Counted from the stretch's first letter, positions 29,875 to 42,215 are shown. The stretch: DNA of 64,000 bases from a virus (IMGVR_UViG_3300045117_000026:1-64000); one strand, 5' to 3'. A program made the numbers and translations. The notes: generated from the sequence alone by a model not told the origin.

Positions 29875-30261
29875 TTACTCGCTTGAGACTTCACCATAGA
29901 ACAAATCAACCTCGTTCTCAGCAAAGTCTACCCCGTATTGCTTACATATACGGATGAACATCAATCTCAGTTCGCGCACTGTTAGGTTGGCGCAGAGTTT
30001 GTCAAACGCTGGTATGCCCACATAATATGGTTCATAATCTCTCCAATATACCTCATCATCATCAACGCCATAGGCAAGTTCTCCGCCAATGAACACCAGC
30101 GCCTTTCCTTGGTTAGTACCACCCCATCCTTCGGTGCACTCATCCAGCTTTATGAGCTTGTGGATTTTCTCGTTGAACTTCTTGTCATCCGAATTCGCAA
30201 CACCCACGATGAGGAAGCTGGATGAACTCGAATTGGAGACAAAGCCGGTTCTGATTTTCAT
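29875..30261 (-). CDS. MKxRxxFVSNSSSSSF-family protein
   Basis: N-terminus MKIRTGFVSNSSSSSF. Confidence 0.75.
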   Translation of the reverse strand: MKIRTGFVSNSSSSSFLIVGVANSDDKKFNEKIHKLIKLDECTEGWGGTNQGKALVFIGGELAYGVDDDEVYWRDYEPYYVGIPAFDKLCANLTVRELRLMFIRICKQYGVDFAENEVDLFYGEVSSE

Positions 30262-30279: not shown

Positions 30280-30633
30280 TTAATCGTGCCAAGCTTCGGA
30301 AATATCCCTGATGTCTGTATCCGAAAGGTCTTCGCCAAATGCTTCCTTGAGTGAAAGGTTCTTAGTGGCAGCAAGGGACAGCAAGGCAAGCATAATTTTA
30401 ACCTTGGTAGTATACCGGAATGAAGCCCCTGTTTCGTCATCCTTTAATGAGTCATAACTGCGACCAATGTAGAGATCGTCATAGGGTGACACCCTGACGG
30501 TGAGACCATGCTTACCACAAATGTCGCTGATTTGCAAAGCGTCAAATGCGCAATCAAGGAGATTGAGGTATACTCCGTGGATCAGGAAAGAGGTGGTACT
30601 ACTGTTGCTTACGAAGCTTGTTCTTAGTTTCAT
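30280..30633 (-). CDS. MKxRxxFVSNSSSSSF-family protein (paralog)
   Basis: N-terminus MKLRTSFVSNSSTTSF. Confidence 0.75.
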   Translation of the reverse strand: MKLRTSFVSNSSTTSFLIHGVYLNLLDCAFDALQISDICGKHGLTVRVSPYDDLYIGRSYDSLKDDETGASFRYTTKVKIMLALLSLAATKNLSLKEAFGEDLSDTDIRDISEAWHD

Positions 30634-30645
30634 GTTTAGCCTCCT

Positions 30646-31452
30646 TTACACCTCATTAACGTAAACATAATCTACCAAGAGGTAGATAGCATCTTGTTTA
30701 TCAGAGGGGGAGAGCGGAGCATCGGTGCGCAGTAGGTTAATAAGCCTTTTAGCAATAGACTTATCAAGGGTATCTCGCAAAGAACCAGATGTTGCCGGAC
30801 CATTGTAATTGTAATGAGCCTCAAGAGGGTACTCGTCTACAAGAGGAGCTTTTGATACATTAGTCTCTGGTAGCGGGTCAGCCTTGACTGTTACAGGCGC
30901 AGTTGTGAATACTTGAGTTAGCGTGCCTTTACCTCCCCATGTATCTGCTTTATCCGGCATTGACAAGAGGAATGTTTTTGTTTCCTCTGCCCATTTGGTA
31001 TGATCGGGCCAGTCATGCACATGGACCGTAATCTCTTTCACCATGACTGCACCGCACAATGTCTTTCCTTTGACTGATGCGCTGATGGCGCCGGAGTTGG
31101 TGATTATCAAGCTGACAGGATTATTGGCGTCTACATAACTCTGATCAGCCGGCGAATGGAATGTCCCCATGTTGTGGTGCGAATGTATGACGCCGACTTT
31201 CCGCTCCGGGGAGACTTCCCCAGGTAACATCTCGCACCAGCCGGAACTGGGTTTGACCTGGCGTGGAATAACGATGTCATCGACAAGTACCAGTTCATCA
31301 GAGATCGTGCCGAGACACCATCCAATCCACTCAAGGTTGCTCATTGCATCGCATAGGGAACATGCTTTGGCAAAGGCGTCAAGGGTTATTGAAACATCTG
31401 GGAAGATACCGGGTTTTCCGCATTGGGTAATACACTCTTTAGATTGCCACAT
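30646..31452 (-). CDS. JAB/JAMM metallopeptidase (deubiquitinase-like)
   Basis: E in LEWIG plus HSHHNMGTFHSPAD (HxH-x7-S-x2-D). Confidence 0.85.
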   Translation of the reverse strand: MWQSKECITQCGKPGIFPDVSITLDAFAKACSLCDAMSNLEWIGWCLGTISDELVLVDDIVIPRQVKPSSGWCEMLPGEVSPERKVGVIHSHHNMGTFHSPADQSYVDANNPVSLIITNSGAISASVKGKTLCGAVMVKEITVHVHDWPDHTKWAEETKTFLLSMPDKADTWGGKGTLTQVFTTAPVTVKADPLPETNVSKAPLVDEYPLEAHYNYNGPATSGSLRDTLDKSIAKRLINLLRTDAPLSPSDKQDAIYLLVDYVYVNEV

Positions 31453-32483
31453 TATGTCTTAATCTCCTTTCTTCCTTTTTCCAGACCTGCCATGAATGCC
31501 TCGCAATAATCGCAATTATGTTGCTTACAGTTAAGACACTTACCAGGTCCGTCAGCTAGACCCTTATTGTATGCTCTGCAGTCCTCACAATCTCTGTGTA
31601 CGCATTCATTACAATTACCAAAGTCAACTTCATCCGCGTCAACCTTACCGCAGTTCTCGCACGCATTTGCGACGGCTCTACAACCATCACACTTGTCGCA
31701 GTCATCGCAGTCCCCACGGTAGCAGTCATCGCACATTTCTCTGTGCGCCTTGCATTCGTCACGTTTACAGCGGTCACAATCATCGAAGCTGTCTTTCTTG
31801 GTACATGTCTTGCACAGTTCTGGGCTGGCAACCTCTTGAGTAACAATCCTGGGTTGTCCTACATCACCGATATCCATTGATAGTTGAAGCAATGGAAACT
31901 TCATGAGCTTGGCTACACCCATTGCGGCGGCCGCTATAGCTGGGACGACCCAGCTTGGGATAAAGTTGTAGGCCGCTATCTTACCGTTCTCGTCTACTAC
32001 GGCAGGAACTTTCTCCTGAACCCATCCGGGTAACTTGTCTGCTACCATGAAGTGAGTACCATCATACCCAAGCTTTGTGTATGTCACTCCATAGTCAACT
32101 GACCATTTGTAGTTAATCCCCTGGGAAATCAGAGTGTCGGTACAATCTATCAGATTGTCGGGTAAGACATAGTCATTGTGGAAATCCTCGAGCGGGAACT
32201 TTACGATATACGCATTACACGTAATATCCGGTCGCAGGGCTATGATAAGCTCCCTTGTCGCTTCAGCTTTATACTGGTCAAGCTGATGGATTGTGAACGG
32301 CAGTCGGTTCAGGTTAGAAGCTTCAATCCGGTCAGGGTCGTACAGTTCAATGTGCGGTACCCCTGACATCGCAAGGAGCAAAGCTACCCAAGCACCGACA
32401 CCACCGCACCCAACTACTGCCACCTTTTGTGGCATCAAGAGGTGCAACTCCTGTTGCCTGTTATAAATTATGTCGGCTTCCAT
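31452..32483 (-). CDS. E1/ThiF-family activating enzyme with poly-CxxC tail
   Basis: Y.RQ, GCGGVG, D.D.IE.SNLNR, K, DCTD; about ten CxxC in C-terminal third. Confidence 0.9.
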   Translation of the reverse strand: MEADIIYNRQQELHLLMPQKVAVVGCGGVGAWVALLLAMSGVPHIELYDPDRIEASNLNRLPFTIHQLDQYKAEATRELIIALRPDITCNAYIVKFPLEDFHNDYVLPDNLIDCTDTLISQGINYKWSVDYGVTYTKLGYDGTHFMVADKLPGWVQEKVPAVVDENGKIAAYNFIPSWVVPAIAAAAMGVAKLMKFPLLQLSMDIGDVGQPRIVTQEVASPELCKTCTKKDSFDDCDRCKRDECKAHREMCDDCYRGDCDDCDKCDGCRAVANACENCGKVDADEVDFGNCNECVHRDCEDCRAYNKGLADGPGKCLNCKQHNCDYCEAFMAGLEKGRKEIKT

Positions 32484-33343
32484 AATCCTGATCCTTTCGC
32501 TTCGTCATTAAAGTCTTCCTTCAATGCATTAATCACATCATTGTACGTCGGGATATTATCCTCTGGATTTTCATGCATACCGGAAAACTCGTTAATGTAA
32601 CCCTGTTGTGCTATTGCTTGTGTTATTAGTTGTGTCGGCTCGGGGTTTAAGGGAACGTTGCGATAAGCAAGAGATCGCACACAGTTATTGTACCCGGAGC
32701 CGTAATAGTTGCGGAACGGGGCGCCGTCCTGCCGGAAGAGACCAATGTTACTGCATACAGGTGATCTGGTGCCTGTGAAACGGAGTTGCAGGAATACGTT
32801 ACGGCTTGAGGCTTCTTGTATTTCCTTTGGTATATCGTAGAACTTCCCGTGACGTTCAAGCTTTGTCGGGCACCAAGTGAACGGGACTGCATATACAAGA
32901 CAGTCTAGATGATAGAACAACCTCTTACCGCTAACGGCGTATTGTATGGTGAACCACTTTGGGAACTTGAACTCGTTTGACGTATTTACTTTTCTGAGGA
33001 ATTCGTTAATGGCAATGACAGCAACCCTTTTGTTAGAACTTGCTTGGTCTGCCATTACACCAACCAAACTCTTTATGATAGGCTCTTTGGTTTTCTTGTT
33101 GGTGACGGAAACGTCGCAGGAGCCAATGTCTGCGTCGTTTAATTTCAGGGTAATGGAGTTGTCTTCCGTCCTTAGAGCGTCAATGATCTGCTTATACTCA
33201 GGTGGCTCTTCAGGCACATGTCCGTTTGATGCCAGCCATACCGACAGCGGGCAACGTTCACTAAAAGAACAAGCGGTGTGCGGTATCAATGACTGCGGAA
33301 CACGTGCACCGTTGACAGACATTACTTCTTGATTTGTCGGCAT
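32468..33343 (-). CDS. unknown protein in Ubl operon; E2-like candidate
   Basis: Between Ubl and E1, overlapping the E1 start; Cys in FRNYYGSGYNNCV; assignment mainly contextual. Confidence 0.4.
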   Translation of the reverse strand: MPTNQEVMSVNGARVPQSLIPHTACSFSERCPLSVWLASNGHVPEEPPEYKQIIDALRTEDNSITLKLNDADIGSCDVSVTNKKTKEPIIKSLVGVMADQASSNKRVAVIAINEFLRKVNTSNEFKFPKWFTIQYAVSGKRLFYHLDCLVYAVPFTWCPTKLERHGKFYDIPKEIQEASSRNVFLQLRFTGTRSPVCSNIGLFRQDGAPFRNYYGSGYNNCVRSLAYRNVPLNPEPTQLITQAIAQQGYINEFSGMHENPEDNIPTYNDVINALKEDFNDEAKGSGLWKPT

Positions 33344-33366
33344 AGTTACCCTCCTTAAGGATTATG

Positions 33367-33395
33367 AAGTCGGGGGTCATTACGACCCCCGACTT
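33367..33395 (-). promoter_or_regulatory. perfect 12 bp hairpin after the Ubl gene
   Basis: AAGTCGGGGGTC-5 nt-GACCCCCGACTT; no U-tract on the coding strand. Confidence 0.6.
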
Positions 33396-33434
33396 GTTTG
33401 TTGTCCGGACAGTCAAACTATATAAGCTACGGGA

Positions 33435-33671
33435 TTAGCACCCGCCAGCGTTATAAGCCTCAATCCGAACGGTCATACCAACCTCGAAGGAAGCTGGTAC
33501 GTTGTTGCCGGTCTCGTCAATCTCTACATCGTTGACGTAGACGCGGGCACTGTTGATACCGTGCTTGATAAGGAGATCATTGATGCCGCTACCGAATTTG
33601 GTCCCTGCAGCGACTTCGACCGCCTTACCATCGACCGTGACACTGAGCGCCTTTGCTTTCTGTTCCCACAT
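33435..33671 (-). CDS. ubiquitin-like (beta-grasp) protein ending AGGC
   Basis: 78 aa; VTVDG, VYVND, G..V.I....GG pattern of ThiS/MoaD/Ub. Confidence 0.8.
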   Translation of the reverse strand: MWEQKAKALSVTVDGKAVEVAAGTKFGSGINDLLIKHGINSARVYVNDVEIDETGNNVPASFEVGMTVRIEAYNAGGC

Positions 33672-33728: not shown

Positions 33729-34265
33729 CTACCCGCCCCTCGGGCCGTTATAGAAATCGTTTCCATCAACCTTGACTTCTCCACCCTCTATCACAAGCGT
33801 TGCTTGGAAACCCATCCCGCCCTCGTAAGAGAGCATTTCAAATCGCAATGACGGGAATAACTCACCAGCTTTTATGATAAGCGGAGTAGGCGGGGACCAT
33901 GCGGTCTCAAAGGTATACTCCACTTTACCTTTTGGCTTGGTGGTTGACTTAGAGATCATTTTCACCTCGCAGAACCCCCACTTGGTACCCCAGTTGTCAA
34001 TACACCACTCATAGCCACCGCTGTTAAAGCCGTTCTTTGGACGGTTCTCCAACAGAGATGAGAAGTTAGGGTCCTTAGCTTTATTCTCCCGTACTTCCCT
34101 GTCCCACTTCGTGGCTTCCTCATCCAGTGTCCTGAACTCCTCTGGATAAGGGATAAGCTTGTTGGCATCCATTAAAGAGTTTTTCCCTTTAACTAACTCC
34201 ACAAACTTCTTTAACTCTCCAGAGGGCCCCGTGATTGTAAGATCGTTCTCGCACCAGTTAGGCAT
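33729..34265 (-). CDS. DUF1281/YubB ferredoxin-like family protein
   Basis: MPNWCEN, W...NWGTKW, FETAWSPP. Confidence 0.8.
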   Translation of the reverse strand: MPNWCENDLTITGPSGELKKFVELVKGKNSLMDANKLIPYPEEFRTLDEEATKWDREVRENKAKDPNFSSLLENRPKNGFNSGGYEWCIDNWGTKWGFCEVKMISKSTTKPKGKVEYTFETAWSPPTPLIIKAGELFPSLRFEMLSYEGGMGFQATLVIEGGEVKVDGNDFYNGPRGG

Positions 34266-35020: not shown

Positions 35021-36004
35021 TTACACCTCGTATATCGGACATCTGCGGTAATTGGTTAACAGCCTATTCCGGAAAGCAATAGTGTGTCGATTGTTCCATA
35101 CCTCGTTCATAAAGTTACCAGAATGAACAACATCCACGCCATCGCACACATTCTCGGTGAATGAGCAAGGGAAGCCAATGCCTTTAGCGTTAATGTAGTA
35201 GGAGAACAAGGTTGACTCACACGGCTCAACGCTACTAGCATCCACAGATACGCCGGAGTTGATTACGTTATGAGCACTACAGCTATCAAAGCCGACAGTT
35301 ACCTGCCTGTCCAATGATGCTTGGAGTAATCGCTGATATGACCTTGTATCCTTTACTTTACTGAACCTTGATGTCTGTCCGCGACCCTTTGGCTTAAAGG
35401 CAAGAAAGACAATAGCGTTGACCTCGAGACCCATAGCTTTAGTGTTACTCACCTCGGTAATAAGGCGAACGCAATCATCAAGTGTTTCCTCAGAGAGAAG
35501 TGCATGGATATTATTCTGCGTGATACCACGTTTCCTTAATTCATGGAGAGCGGTAAAGCATACGTCTTTGTCATAGTACGACACCGCCACCGCTCCACAC
35601 AGCTTGGAGAGAATGTCATAGTACCTCGGCGTCATACGGAAGCCGTTGATAGTAATGTTGGGTATAACGCCTTTGCTTCGAGTATACTCAAGGATGGCGG
35701 GGAGGTCGGGGTTGCCATCAATGTCTCCTATGCCGAACGCTATTTGCGTGAGGTTACTTGGAGCTTTATCAATGATACCCTTGAATGTATCAAGGCTCAT
35801 GTTGTAACCATCAGCAGTATTACCCTTATAGCAGAACCTGCATCCTTGATGACAGACGGTGCTCAGTTCAATATCAAGGAGTTCCGGACCAAGTGGCGAC
35901 ACCTGCGGGTCGTCCTGTATGGTGTTACCCCAACGCATAAAGAAGCCGTTGTTTTGATTGAATATGTAGTTGTAACCAGGGTGCTTAACTACTTTGAGCG
36001 ACAC
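35021..36004 (-). CDS. radical SAM protein with Twitch/SPASM-like end
   Basis: CHQGCRFCY, KPKGRG, FDSC, CES...PCSF. Confidence 0.88.
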   Translation of the reverse strand: MSLKVVKHPGYNYIFNQNNGFFMRWGNTIQDDPQVSPLGPELLDIELSTVCHQGCRFCYKGNTADGYNMSLDTFKGIIDKAPSNLTQIAFGIGDIDGNPDLPAILEYTRSKGVIPNITINGFRMTPRYYDILSKLCGAVAVSYYDKDVCFTALHELRKRGITQNNIHALLSEETLDDCVRLITEVSNTKAMGLEVNAIVFLAFKPKGRGQTSRFSKVKDTRSYQRLLQASLDRQVTVGFDSCSAHNVINSGVSVDASSVEPCESTLFSYYINAKGIGFPCSFTENVCDGVDVVHSGNFMNEVWNNRHTIAFRNRLLTNYRRCPIYEV

Positions 36005-41238: not shown

Positions 41239-41814
41239 TTACGGACAAGAAGCTCTTGGTGACTCGTGTACATCTTTATAAGTGTCAACATATATATCAG
41301 GTATAGTTCCTGCGATCATACCTGCCGCTACAAGAACCGGGGAGTACGACCAAGCCGGTACAAAGTATTGTGTCTCTTCTCCAGAGTTGTTAGTGATAGC
41401 GAAGTAACATCCTTTGTAACTAATCTCCGCATAATTTGCTCCTAGTCCCGAGGCCCAGTCGGAGCATGCGACCCGTTCGGAAGGACTTTTAATACCGCAC
41501 GTTACAATCCACTGTGGTTGCTCGCAAGAATAAACAGGTGCGCTTGTGGTCCTAATATTCAATTTACAATCGGGTCTAATGGACAGTATCATTCTCCTTA
41601 CTGCTTCTACCTTATAGGCGCCAACCTGATGGGGCAAAAGAGCTAACATAAGTTCCTCGTTGGTTTTGCTCTCGACCCTGGCAGGATCAATCAGCGTAAT
41701 GGTTTTGATACCAGATGTCGCCAACAACAGGGACTCCAATATACCAATGGAGCCAAGTCCGACTACAATGACATGGTCATCCAATGGATTATGCTGTTTA
41801 ATACCTTCATCCAT
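41239..41814 (-). CDS. degenerate E1/ThiF paralog
   Basis: GLGSIG, IDP..VE, QVG.YKVEA; lacks SNLNR and DxxD. Confidence 0.7.
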   Translation of the reverse strand: MDEGIKQHNPLDDHVIVVGLGSIGILESLLLATSGIKTITLIDPARVESKTNEELMLALLPHQVGAYKVEAVRRMILSIRPDCKLNIRTTSAPVYSCEQPQWIVTCGIKSPSERVACSDWASGLGANYAEISYKGCYFAITNNSGEETQYFVPAWSYSPVLVAAGMIAGTIPDIYVDTYKDVHESPRASCP

Positions 41815-42215
41815 TAGCCTGACATCTCCTTAACATCCTTGATTGCGACCTTTATCATCCTATGCTCCTGCTCCAGCGTCTCCCTGTACTCGAAGCTCTT
41901 AAGGACAATAATCTGATAAGCCGCTTCCATCTCTACCCGTGGTGGGTTCAAGTAGGAGTACTTGGCAAGTTCCCAACATAGGTCGGTAATGTCTTCCTCG
42001 ACCCCACAGGATGCGCACTTGTAATATATAAAACCGCCGTTGAAGCGGAGCATTGGGACACCACCTTTCGGATTTGCGGTTAAAGTATCGGATTCACCAC
42101 AGACAATCGTCCCGTGTATTTGAATAGGAATACGGATAGCGCACATGTTCTATTCTTACCCCTTGGAAGTTGGAAATGTGGGGCCCGGGGACGGCATACC
42201 CGGGCCCCTATAACC

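Follow-up and report, generated by a model that had tools for sequence, protein, structure and literature searches.

The four-gene cassette in the genome of a tailed phage

The present work concerns four consecutive genes in a stretch of viral DNA of 64,000 nucleotides (IMGVR_UViG_3300045117_000026:1-64000; this whole stretch is referred to below as the window), which is part of an IMG/VR virus contig of 79.6 kb with an estimated completeness of about 67%. Judged by its sequence, the source of the window is a tailed phage, and the proteins encoded in it include a large terminase, a portal protein, a protease-capsid fusion, several DNA methyltransferases and a helicase/primase; near-identical DNA is present in at least 10 metagenome runs from lake water, and no RNA run appears among the sequencing runs listed for it. 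All four genes are on the minus strand, and their open reading frames (ORFs) lie exactly where they had been placed by an earlier reading made from the sequence alone (referred to as the original prediction). In their order on this strand, they encode a tag protein of 78 amino acids with a ThiS-like beta-grasp fold and the C-terminus YNAGGC (33435-33671), a protein of 291 amino acids with a predicted UBC-like fold in its C-terminal half (32468-33343; the E2-like protein), an E1-type adenylating enzyme of 343 amino acids, which matches the Pfam family ThiF with an E-value of 8e-24 (31452-32483), and a JAMM/MPN+ metalloprotease of 268 amino acids, which is recognized by its JAMM motif and its family profile (30646-31452; the JAB). 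We consider it probable that these four genes together constitute one phage-encoded ubiquitin-like conjugation module.

The gene for the E2-like protein and the start of the E1 gene overlap by 16 nt, the stop of the E1 gene and the start of the JAB gene overlap by 1 nt, and ribosome-binding sites of the AAGGAG type (i.e. good Shine-Dalgarno sequences) are present ahead of both the tag gene and the gene for the E2-like protein. Because of these overlaps, and of the close spacing with ribosome-binding sites, the four genes are, on sequence grounds, translationally linked. Between the tag gene and the gene for the E2-like protein there is a perfect, G+C-rich hairpin of 12 bp (33367-33395, minus strand), which was found as a plus-strand match in a terminator scan and read in the minus-strand sequence; the coding strand shows no T-run after it. 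This hairpin may serve as a stabiliser of the mRNA 3' end or as a partial attenuator, by which the expression of the tag would be set above that of the enzymes.

The ubiquitin-like tag and the JAMM protease

The tag ends in the sequence A-Y-N-A-G-G-C, in which Cys78, the only Cys of the protein, is located one residue past Gly77. The model obtained for it by AlphaFold2 with the family alignment (pLDDT, the predicted local distance difference test score, of 79) shows the element order b-b-a-b-b-b, i.e. that of a beta-grasp protein. In Foldseek comparisons of this model with PDB and BFVD no significant E-value was obtained, the best PDB row being ThiS from the ThiS-ThiF complex (1zud_2) with an E-value of 0.07, which is not significant for so small a protein. 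In an exhaustive comparison by VIA-align, with Z-scores up to 7.7 and 67-72 of the 78 residues aligned, all 50 of the top 50 rows were ubiquitin-like folds, and they included SUMO, ISG15, MoaD, ThiS, TtuB and ubiquitin. The original prediction had described this protein as beta-grasp and had staked its interpretation on this fold, upon which the AlphaFold2 model and VIA-align are in agreement. The tag combines this fold with a tail that would end in Gly after processing, and these are the features of beta-grasp ubiquitin-like (Ubl) modifiers. The PHROGs collection contains essentially no family for the tag, and the same holds for the E2-like protein and the JAB.

A pattern search with the E1 in IMG/VR gave 92 viral relatives, and the counts reported here rest on the 80 loci that were fetched. 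Iterated searches with hidden Markov models (HMMs) detected relatives of the tag in 48 of these 80 loci, always 1-1.5 kb upstream of the E1. The consensus end of this tag family is [YF]-D-x-[AV]-G, after which 0-6 further residues are present; Gly77 is aligned to the terminal Gly of the relatives, and Cys78 constitutes a one-residue extension. In a sister cassette, which is described below, the tags end in YVKAG or, like the window tag, in Gly-Cys. Eight of these sister-cassette tags also end in Gly-Cys, 7 of them as YVKAGC and 1 as KPGC, and the terminal Cys thus recurs and is no accident.

A tag of this kind could also be a sulfur carrier. In such a case, the E1 would adenylate the tag, a persulfide donor of the host would convert it into a thiocarboxylate, and the sulfur would be incorporated into a small molecule, a nucleoside or cysteine. 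The role of the JAMM protease would be limited to trimming the Gly-Cys end, and the 291-amino-acid protein would be a sulfur relay or acceptor enzyme with a single essential Cys. This is the serious alternative to protein conjugation, but it is weakened by several of the results described here and below, and we regard it as unlikely. It draws support from the presence of ThiS, MoaD, CysO and TtuB among the nearest structures of the tag and from the recurrence of the Gly-Cys end in the eight loci of the sister cassette, and it has precedents, viz. the CysO-cysteine adduct cleaved by Mec+, which is a C-terminal Gly-Cys, and QbsE, which carries Gly-Gly-Cys-Phe, removed by a JAMM protease (QbsD). 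However, most of the tag relatives finish in Ala-Gly or Val-Gly and not in Gly-Gly, which speaks against it.

The JAB, as a single sequence, matches the Pfam family Prok-JAB with an E-value of 1.3e-4, which is under the cut-off. The JAB domain corresponds to about residues 1-140, and the C-terminal portion of about 130 amino acids is without assignment. The HxH-S-D signature reported in the original prediction is present in full: the domain contains E41 and H90-S-H92-x7-S100-x2-D103, which is the combination (Glu and H-x-H-x7-S-x2-D on a JAB fold) by which JAMM/MPN+ metalloproteases are defined, and these residues are invariant or nearly so in 36 homologues. The family profile matches JAMM deubiquitinases, viz. 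the AMSH-like Sst2 (2e-6), AMSH, BilC (1.5e-3) and Rpn11. Its nearest proteins in PDB are JAMMs of the isopeptidase type (AMSH, BilC and Rpn11), and its greater nearness to isopeptidases than to anything else in PDB is a further point against a function restricted to sulfur transfer.

A JAB homologue is found directly downstream of the E1 in 77 of the 80 loci, and 71 of these 77 homologues have an intact JAMM motif; the six homologues lacking H-x-H...S-x-x-D are those of loci L009, L012, L022, L024, L025 and L034. The ends of the tags were tabulated for 46 viral loci, and they stop exactly at Gly in 24, have Gly followed by 1-6 residues in 17 and show no terminal Gly in 5. None of the 22 loci in which the tag end is extended or atypical (17 + 5) has lost the JAMM motif, and in the five loci with a degenerate JAB for which the tag was found, all five tags end exactly in Gly. 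This comparison, in which the loci are mutually related and which is hence only suggestive, suggests that the JAMM protease may be dispensable where the tag needs no trimming, and the pattern fits a pro-form that is trimmed by the JAB. The removal of the capping Cys78 from the tag by the JAB, which the original prediction had put forward, is plausible from these sequence patterns. BilC, for comparison, removes a single residue (one Ala) after the Gly of BilA (PMC10557695).

The E2-like protein

In a word-index search, as well as in an exhaustive phmmer search of 1.84 billion representatives, the 291-amino-acid protein found only itself. In 47 of the 80 viral loci, the gene between those of the tag and the E1 encodes a protein of about 285-350 amino acids; the HMM of this family, when built without the window protein, matches the window protein with an E-value of 1.7e-5 (in a space of 4,300 proteins), and in HHalign the window protein and the family align over 139 columns with a probability of 92.9 and an E-value of 3.6e-7. 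By these profile comparisons, the window protein belongs, as a divergent member, to a phage family without annotation, whose place is always between the tag and the E1. In a collection of 5.8 billion proteins this family comprises about 60 clusters, all of which are named "hypothetical" and none of which carries a Pfam domain.

Three residues, viz. Cys221, Asn251 and Trp288 (numbering of the window protein), are invariant in the alignment of 41 members. The conserved block of the family reads F-x-H-Y-H-(x4-7)-D-C-W-G-x-W...W-[ST]-P-x-D-I-I...V-L-E-x-I-N-x-x-S...P-x-G-L-P and is followed by an acidic tail ending in V-W-x-x; the invariant Cys occurs 7-9 residues past H-Y-H. In E2 enzymes the features occur in the order HPN motif, catalytic Cys, W-S-P, long helix and proline-rich end, the catalytic Cys following the HPN-type motif by about 8-10 residues. 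The order of the elements in the conserved block mirrors the HPN...Cys...W-S-P layout of E2 enzymes and is therefore counted toward an E2 assignment. The invariance of the Cys in 41 members, and its alignment in the sister family as well, argue for a role in catalysis.

In the AlphaFold2 model of the window protein the pLDDT is about 90 over residues 130-285, and the N-terminal part is poor except for a long helix (83-121). The UBC-like domain corresponds to about residues 124-275, with Cys221 as the candidate catalytic residue, and the conserved Trp288 is situated near the C-terminus. When 48,161 representative chains were searched with VIA-align, the top match was the BubB E2 chain of 9eav, the Citrobacter Bub complex (Z 5.3, root-mean-square deviation (rmsd) 3.4, 101 amino acids), and below it in the same list were RWD domains, many E2s, UEV domains and the E2 domain of Cap2 (Z 4.3). 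In a second VIA-align search (pdb_via), 46 of the best 50 rows were E2 or UEV proteins, the best of these being UbcH8 (Z 5.8, rmsd 3.8, 117 of 150 residues), and residues 124-275 of the model were matched with E2 residues 1-135, i.e. with the whole UBC core. On these matches, the model is assigned to the UBC/E2 fold, which is defined by an N-terminal helix, a four-strand meander, an extended active-site stretch and C-terminal helices; the Z-scores are modest. In Foldseek searches of PDB and BFVD, E2 and UEV proteins and a phage protein named "CBASS E2" appeared only as weak top rows. When the family profile was compared with PDB sequences, the sole match outside coiled coils was an E2 over exactly the conserved segment, with an E-value of 0.43, which is not significant. 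The nearest ESM-Atlas cluster bearing a Pfam domain is Prok-E2_D (score 0.82), which serves as a lead only, and PF14460 (Prok-E2_D) was not found in the phage's own record, nor in any of five related ones. None of the curated E2 sequence families (UQ_con and Prok-E2_A-E) was matched by the window protein or by six relatives from full cassettes at E-values up to 0.05-0.1.

On account of the uniform match list, the coverage of the whole core, the order of the motifs and the fixed position in the cassette, when these are taken together, the C-terminal half of the 291-amino-acid protein models as a UBC-like (E2) fold, and it would represent a previously undescribed E2-like family. The original prediction had listed this protein only as an unknown and candidate E2, and the predicted fold, together with an invariant Cys at about the place expected from the sequence, supports that candidacy. 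For the sulfur-carrier alternative this is a difficulty, as the third conserved partner has in the models a UBC fold and not a known sulfurtransferase fold.

The E1-type enzyme and its paralogue

Residues 1-215 of the E1 constitute a minimal ThiF-like adenylation domain. In addition to the Pfam match given above, it matches the ThiF model of NCBIfam (4.7e-18) and ThiF in PDB (1.2e-11), and its closest relatives are minimal ThiF-like metagenome proteins of about 195 amino acids with 33-48% identity over the aligned part. All of the family invariants are present in it, viz. the G-x-G-G-x-G loop (G25/G27/G28/G30), D49/D51, N57/N59/R60, K72 and D116, in accordance with the intact adenylation motifs noted in the original prediction. 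The Gly-rich loop, Arg finger and Mg-binding Asp that characterize the E1-like (ThiF/MoeB/UBA) adenylating enzymes are among these. However, the Cys found in the crossover loop or CYS domain of canonical conjugating E1s (UBA1, BilD and Cap2) is lacking in the window E1: the conserved Cys of the family occur only in G-C-G-G and D-C-T-D, and the window E1 is free of Cys between residues 115 and 223. For an enzyme that is without a catalytic-Cys loop or domain, it is unlikely that the tag passes through a classical E1~Ubl thioester. A Tyr (Tyr172) is invariant in the family and lies in the loop just ahead of the helix P-S-W-V-V-P.

The E1 family profile, when compared with PDB, matches TcdA (3.6e-22), ThiF (4e-20), MccB (7e-20), UBA5 (7e-19), PaaA (3e-18) and BubCD (1.7e-13), and the alignments to solved E1s span their N-terminal Rossmann half only. 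Since all of the E1-like branches are matched about equally, the E1 alone cannot separate conjugation from sulfur transfer. The sulfur-carrier alternative is helped to the extent that the E1 scores best against ThiF-type models and is without the E1 catalytic-Cys domain. The E1-E2 models of PADLOC match the window E1 over their E1 part only, that of the Cap2 type with an E-value of 8.6e-17.

These profile matches also bear on a different possibility, in which the end of the tag would be joined not to lysine but to a nucleotide, DNA, a lipid or a small amine, or would be cyclised or amidated in the manner of MccB or PaaA, with the UBC-fold protein serving as an adaptor. TcdA, MccB and PaaA are matched at least as well as the conjugating E1s, and the His residues beside the Cys are lost in the window copy of the E2-like protein, both of which would be in line with this. 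However, the substrates of MccB and PaaA are short peptides and not beta-grasp proteins, the Cys of the E2-like family is invariant in its 41 members and aligned in the sister family, and an isopeptidase-like JAMM partner is almost always present. In view of these observations, an acceptor other than lysine appears improbable to us.

The tail of the E1 (residues 224-327) contains 21 Cys, including ten CxxC pairs, several of them arranged as C-x2-C-x4-C, and is rich in Asp and Glu. Shorter Cys/Asp-rich tails are present in some E1 relatives, and in the E1s of about 310 amino acids from the sister cassette such a shorter version of the tail starts with C-D-x-C-[DN]-R. This tail is presumably a multi-zinc (or Fe-S) module without a known family.

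When the phage's own record was queried with the E1, a second ThiF-like gene was found, which is included here as a tentative accessory of the cassette (41239-41814, minus strand; 191 amino acids; E-value 1.2e-16, about 30-32% identity; Pfam ThiF 7.8e-11). In single-sequence searches, neither the E1 nor this paralogue had close relatives in viral contigs. In the pairwise alignment D51, N57, N59, R60, D113 and D116 are replaced, and the protein is probably an inactive E1 paralogue. It may pair with the E1 as a subunit without activity of its own, comparable to the inactive adenylation domain found in BilD or in eukaryotic E1s. The stop of an adjacent gene on the same strand (41814-42146; 110 amino acids, with one CxxC and the ending ...Met-Ser-Gly) overlaps the start of the paralogue gene by 1 nt. 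The gene pair 41239-42146 may code for such a partner subunit, or it may be what is left of a second tag/E1 pair.

Proposed conjugation pathway and the points that weigh against it

From the linkage of the genes, the modelled folds, the conservation of motifs, the synteny and the C-termini of the tags, all of which are shown by the present analysis, we infer the conjugation chemistry and the existence of protein conjugates as follows. The tag would be made as a pro-form ending in Gly-Gly-Cys, from which the JAMM protease would remove Cys78 and thereby expose Gly77. The minimal E1, probably as a homodimer or possibly in a pair with the inactive paralogue, would adenylate Gly77 with ATP. The acyl-adenylate would then be attacked by Cys221 of the UBC-fold protein, either directly or via another residue of the E1, to give an E2~tag thioester; the direct attack is the simplest route because no E1 cysteine is available. 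The tag would be passed on from this thioester to lysines of target proteins, and the JAMM protease could be able to reverse the modification as well.

Several points weigh against this pathway. The evidence for it is derived from sequence, models and synteny only, and the Gly-Cys end of the tag also fits sulfur-carrier chemistry. The E1 is without a catalytic Cys and is not specifically nearer to conjugating E1s, its best PDB matches being TcdA, ThiF and MccB. In the window copy of the E2-like protein Cys221 is retained, but H-Y-H is replaced by N-Y-Y and the W-G beside the Cys by V-R, and this copy could, on this sequence difference, be catalytically weakened. Further, the Z-scores for the E2 fold are modest (4.4-5.8) and in a range where the tool warns of a mere common arrangement, the Foldseek E-values for the E2-like model are not significant (the best PDB row is the E2 Cdc34, with an E-value of 0.14), and no E2 model of Pfam, PHROGs, PADLOC or NCBIfam matches the 291-amino-acid protein or its family. 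The tagging pathway of Ubl, E1, E2 and JAB set out in the original prediction is supported as to its composition, whereas the absence of a catalytic Cys from the E1 and of His-x-His and Trp-Gly from the window copy of the E2-like protein does not accord with it.

The enzymes that would be needed on the sulfur-carrier alternative provide another means of distinguishing between the two. The original prediction had noted that no thiamine or molybdopterin genes are nearby, and this is true of the whole 79.6-kb record, in which the families ThiG, MoaE, rhodanese, PALP (CysM-type) and PP-loop (TtuA-type) were not found and for which control genomes gave positive results. The co-encoded acceptor or donor enzymes of ThiS/MoaD-type pathways are thus lacking from the record, whose completeness is about 67%, and enzymes of the host could take their place. 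A radical SAM gene located 1.3 kb upstream of the cassette (35021-36004, minus strand) can be cited in favour of sulfur transfer; however, it is generic, far under every curated cut-off, and was not found at the related cassettes.

Distribution and genomic contexts of the cassette

The order tag, E2-like protein, E1 and JAB is present in 39 of the 80 viral loci, as the synteny search in viral metagenomes proposed with the original prediction has shown. In a further 12 of the 80 only the tag or only the E2-like protein is missing by HMM detection, and 26 contain the E1 and the JAB only. A chance adjacency of the four genes is ruled out by the retention of their order in 39 loci. When 50,697 GenBank phage records were searched by tblastn with the E1 and one member of the E2-like family, no match was obtained.

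The cassette was found in at least three different genomic contexts. In the first of these, comprising 28-31 loci of T4-like phages, it follows genes for the clamp loader (gp44- and gp62-like; phrog_168 up to 6e-63; Phage_clamp_A) and for a clamp-candidate protein of about 248 amino acids, which shows weak matches to phrog_223 (phage processivity factor, 5e-4) and to archaeal PCNAs (E-values 0.07-0.1). The records in question are fragments of phages of about 230-250 kb, and the loci fall among L009-L074 (e.g. L025:894-3524 and L009:487-2516). In the second context the tags are of 123-131 amino acids and end in K-V-G, and the neighbours are different; the third context is the window locus itself. 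On one of the viral contigs (139 kb), a protein of 366 amino acids with two MIB/HERC2 domains (Pfam 6.8e-14; L007:3121-4221) is encoded two genes upstream of an E1 of 390 amino acids and a JAB. Outside this case, the MIB/HERC2 domain is characteristic of E3 ubiquitin ligases of eukaryotes.

The first context raises the possibility that the cassette is a phage counterpart of the ubiquitination and SUMOylation of PCNA, in which the E2-like protein would dock on the sliding clamp and tag either the clamp or proteins bound to it. We advance this only tentatively and rate it as a long shot. In its favour, the tag gene is located directly after gp44/gp62 and the PCNA-like clamp gene in 28-31 T4-like contigs, and the tail of the E2-like protein has a Trp 2-7 residues from the C-terminus in all members, the tail being acidic in most of them and Gly-Ser-Gly-Leu-Trp in the window protein. 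Replication and transcription proteins of T4 carry C-terminal clamp-binding tails, which this tail resembles. A search of the window's own record with phrog_223, DNA_pol3_beta and the clamp-family HMM gave no sliding clamp. If true, the cassette would act as a reversible switch on the replisome or the late transcription of the virus, by a cascade of two enzymes in which the Cys of the E2 takes the tag from the E1-bound adenylate.

The sister cassette encodes a tag of 77-104 amino acids, a middle protein of about 200 amino acids, an E1 of about 310 amino acids with a tail, and a JAB. The contigs that carry it (L085-L106), among them the complete chromosome of Candidatus Velamenicoccus archaeovorus (Omnitrophota; L104:5068-7627), have been binned as Omnitrophota, Planctomycetes, Woesearchaeota and other groups, and prophages, mis-binned phage contigs and cellular loci are the candidate explanations for them. 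Its middle protein aligns with the E2-like family with a probability of 83.8 and an E-value of 7.9e-6, with F-H-Y...C-[TW]-G...I-N-x-E-S-L-G...L-P in register.

Comparison with known systems

The Bil system (BilABCD; PMC10557695; 10.1101/2023.09.04.556158) shares with the present cassette separate genes for the Ubl, the E2, the JAMM protease and the E1, the lack of an E3 gene, and a Ubl that may bear one residue after the reactive Gly, which the Bil JAB removes; the match of the JAB profile to BilC has been given above. However, BilD consists of an inactive and an active adenylation domain in tandem with a mobile catalytic-Cys domain, whereas here there is one domain of about 215 amino acids without such a Cys, and BilB has a CEHH motif, where the E2-like family has H-Y-H...C-W-G. 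Bil is also encoded by hosts and the present cassette by a phage. Neither the E1 architecture of Bil (inactive adenylation, active adenylation and CYS domains) nor a CEHH E2 is found in the cassette, and of its four proteins only the E1 is matched by PADLOC models.

The Bub system (formerly 6E/DUF6527; PMC11601596) likewise has an E1 without a catalytic cysteine, in place of which a Tyr of the crossover loop (BubCD Tyr370) and a Ser of the E2 are used (PMC11601596). Its BubB (9eav) is also the best structural match of the 291-amino-acid protein in the wide search, and its BubCD is reached by the E1 profile, as noted earlier. In contrast to the four separate proteins seen here, the Ubl is fused to the E2 and the JAB to the E1 in Bub of type I, and the E2 to the E1 in type II; Bub further includes a DUF6527 serine protease and forms Ser/Tyr oxyesters, whereas the nucleophile candidate of the E2-like protein is an invariant Cys. 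Neither the Bub fusions nor the E2 Ser are present in the cassette, and no Pfam DUF6527 was detected among the neighbours scanned. With type II CBASS (Cap2/Cap3; PMC10097602), the cassette has in common E1/E2/JAB chemistry directed at a C-terminal Gly or Ala, and Cap2 models match its E1 domain. It differs in having a dedicated beta-grasp tag, unfused E1 and E2, and no CD-NTase or effector, no such family having been found among the flanking proteins scanned with Pfam, PHROGs and NCBIfam. The cassette is Bil-like in its gene content and Bub-like in its Cys-less E1, and it is outside Bil, Bub and CBASS, the defining features of each of which it lacks.

The CysO/MoeZ/CysM/Mec+ and QbsE/QbsC/QbsD systems share a ThiS-like tag, a ThiF-type E1 lacking the E1 catalytic domain, JAMM trimming past Gly-Gly and a Cys after the Gly. 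They differ in having no UBC-fold partner and in the presence nearby of rhodanese, CysM or other sulfur enzymes, none of which is in this record. With UFM1/UBA5/UFC1 there is similarity in the minimal ThiF-type E1 (homodimeric in UBA5, which is among the best matches of the E1 profile), in a pro-form with a short extension after Val-Gly, and in an E2 without the canonical HPN triad. However, a catalytic Cys and a tail that binds UFC1 are present in UBA5, the trimming of UFM1 is carried out by Cys proteases and not by a JAMM, and no specific sequence relationship is detectable. The gene-neighbourhood class of sulfur-carrier/JAMM systems has been described by Iyer et al. 2006 (PMC1779556). The pairing of a Ubl with a JAB that is seen here has a phage parallel in TAPI (Ubl) and TAPK (JAB-NlpC/P60) of Lambda and T1 (PMC1779556); however, TAPI and TAPK have no E1 or E2, belong to the tail module, and have the Ubl fused to another domain, whereas the present cassette is in the early/replication arm. 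A literature search for a phage-encoded Ubl/E1/E2/JAB system found none, and returned only the host systems and TAPI/TAPK.

The cassette could also be a means of defence or exclusion carried by the phage, i.e. true Ubl conjugation of a Bil-like kind that is directed against competing phages and not used for the phage's own replication. All of the studied bacterial Ubl/E1/E2/JAB operons with a known role are anti-phage (PMC10557695; 10.1101/2023.09.04.556158; PMC11601596), and the sister cassette is found in cellular genome bins, including the complete Omnitrophota chromosome. However, it counts against a defensive role that no PADLOC model matches a cassette protein other than the E1, no regulator of the CapW or CapH-CapP type was seen among the ORFs beside the cassette, and in 28-31 viral loci the cassette is inside a replication module, where accessory defence cargo is not typically placed. 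We therefore take such a role to be rather unlikely.

Other genes near the cassette

Upstream of the window tag are an Api92-like protein, proteins without assignment and the generic radical SAM gene discussed above. The Api92-like/DUF1281_C protein (33729-34265, minus strand) matches phrog_12644 with an E-value of 5.9e-24 and is not kept beside the cassette in relatives. The radical SAM protein belongs to an unannotated phage family (phrog_7293, 2.7e-67) and has a weak SPASM-like end. Just downstream of the JAB, two adjacent small genes on the minus strand (29875-30261 and 30280-30633) are paralogues of each other, with near-identical N-termini of the form M-K-[IL]-R-T-x-F-V-S-N-S-S...S-F-L-I-x-G-V and only a weak PHROG match (phrog_7397). 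In a blastn search with the 4.5-kb cassette region the sole match was to 56 bases of a Ralstonia phage.

Significance of the cassette

The prokaryotic Ubl/E1/E2/JAB sets that have been characterised to date (Bil, Bub and CBASS) are immune systems of the host. If it is true that the cassette described here is a conserved conjugation module owned by viruses, then phages, too, use ubiquitin-style tagging, and its possible uses include control of the phage's own replication machinery, remodelling of host proteins and interference with host immunity based on Ubl proteins. The components are small and appear to be soluble, and the pathway is therefore directly testable by co-expression. The cassette would also add an undescribed E2-like family, together with an E1 lacking a catalytic Cys, to the evolution of ubiquitination from sulfur-carrier systems.

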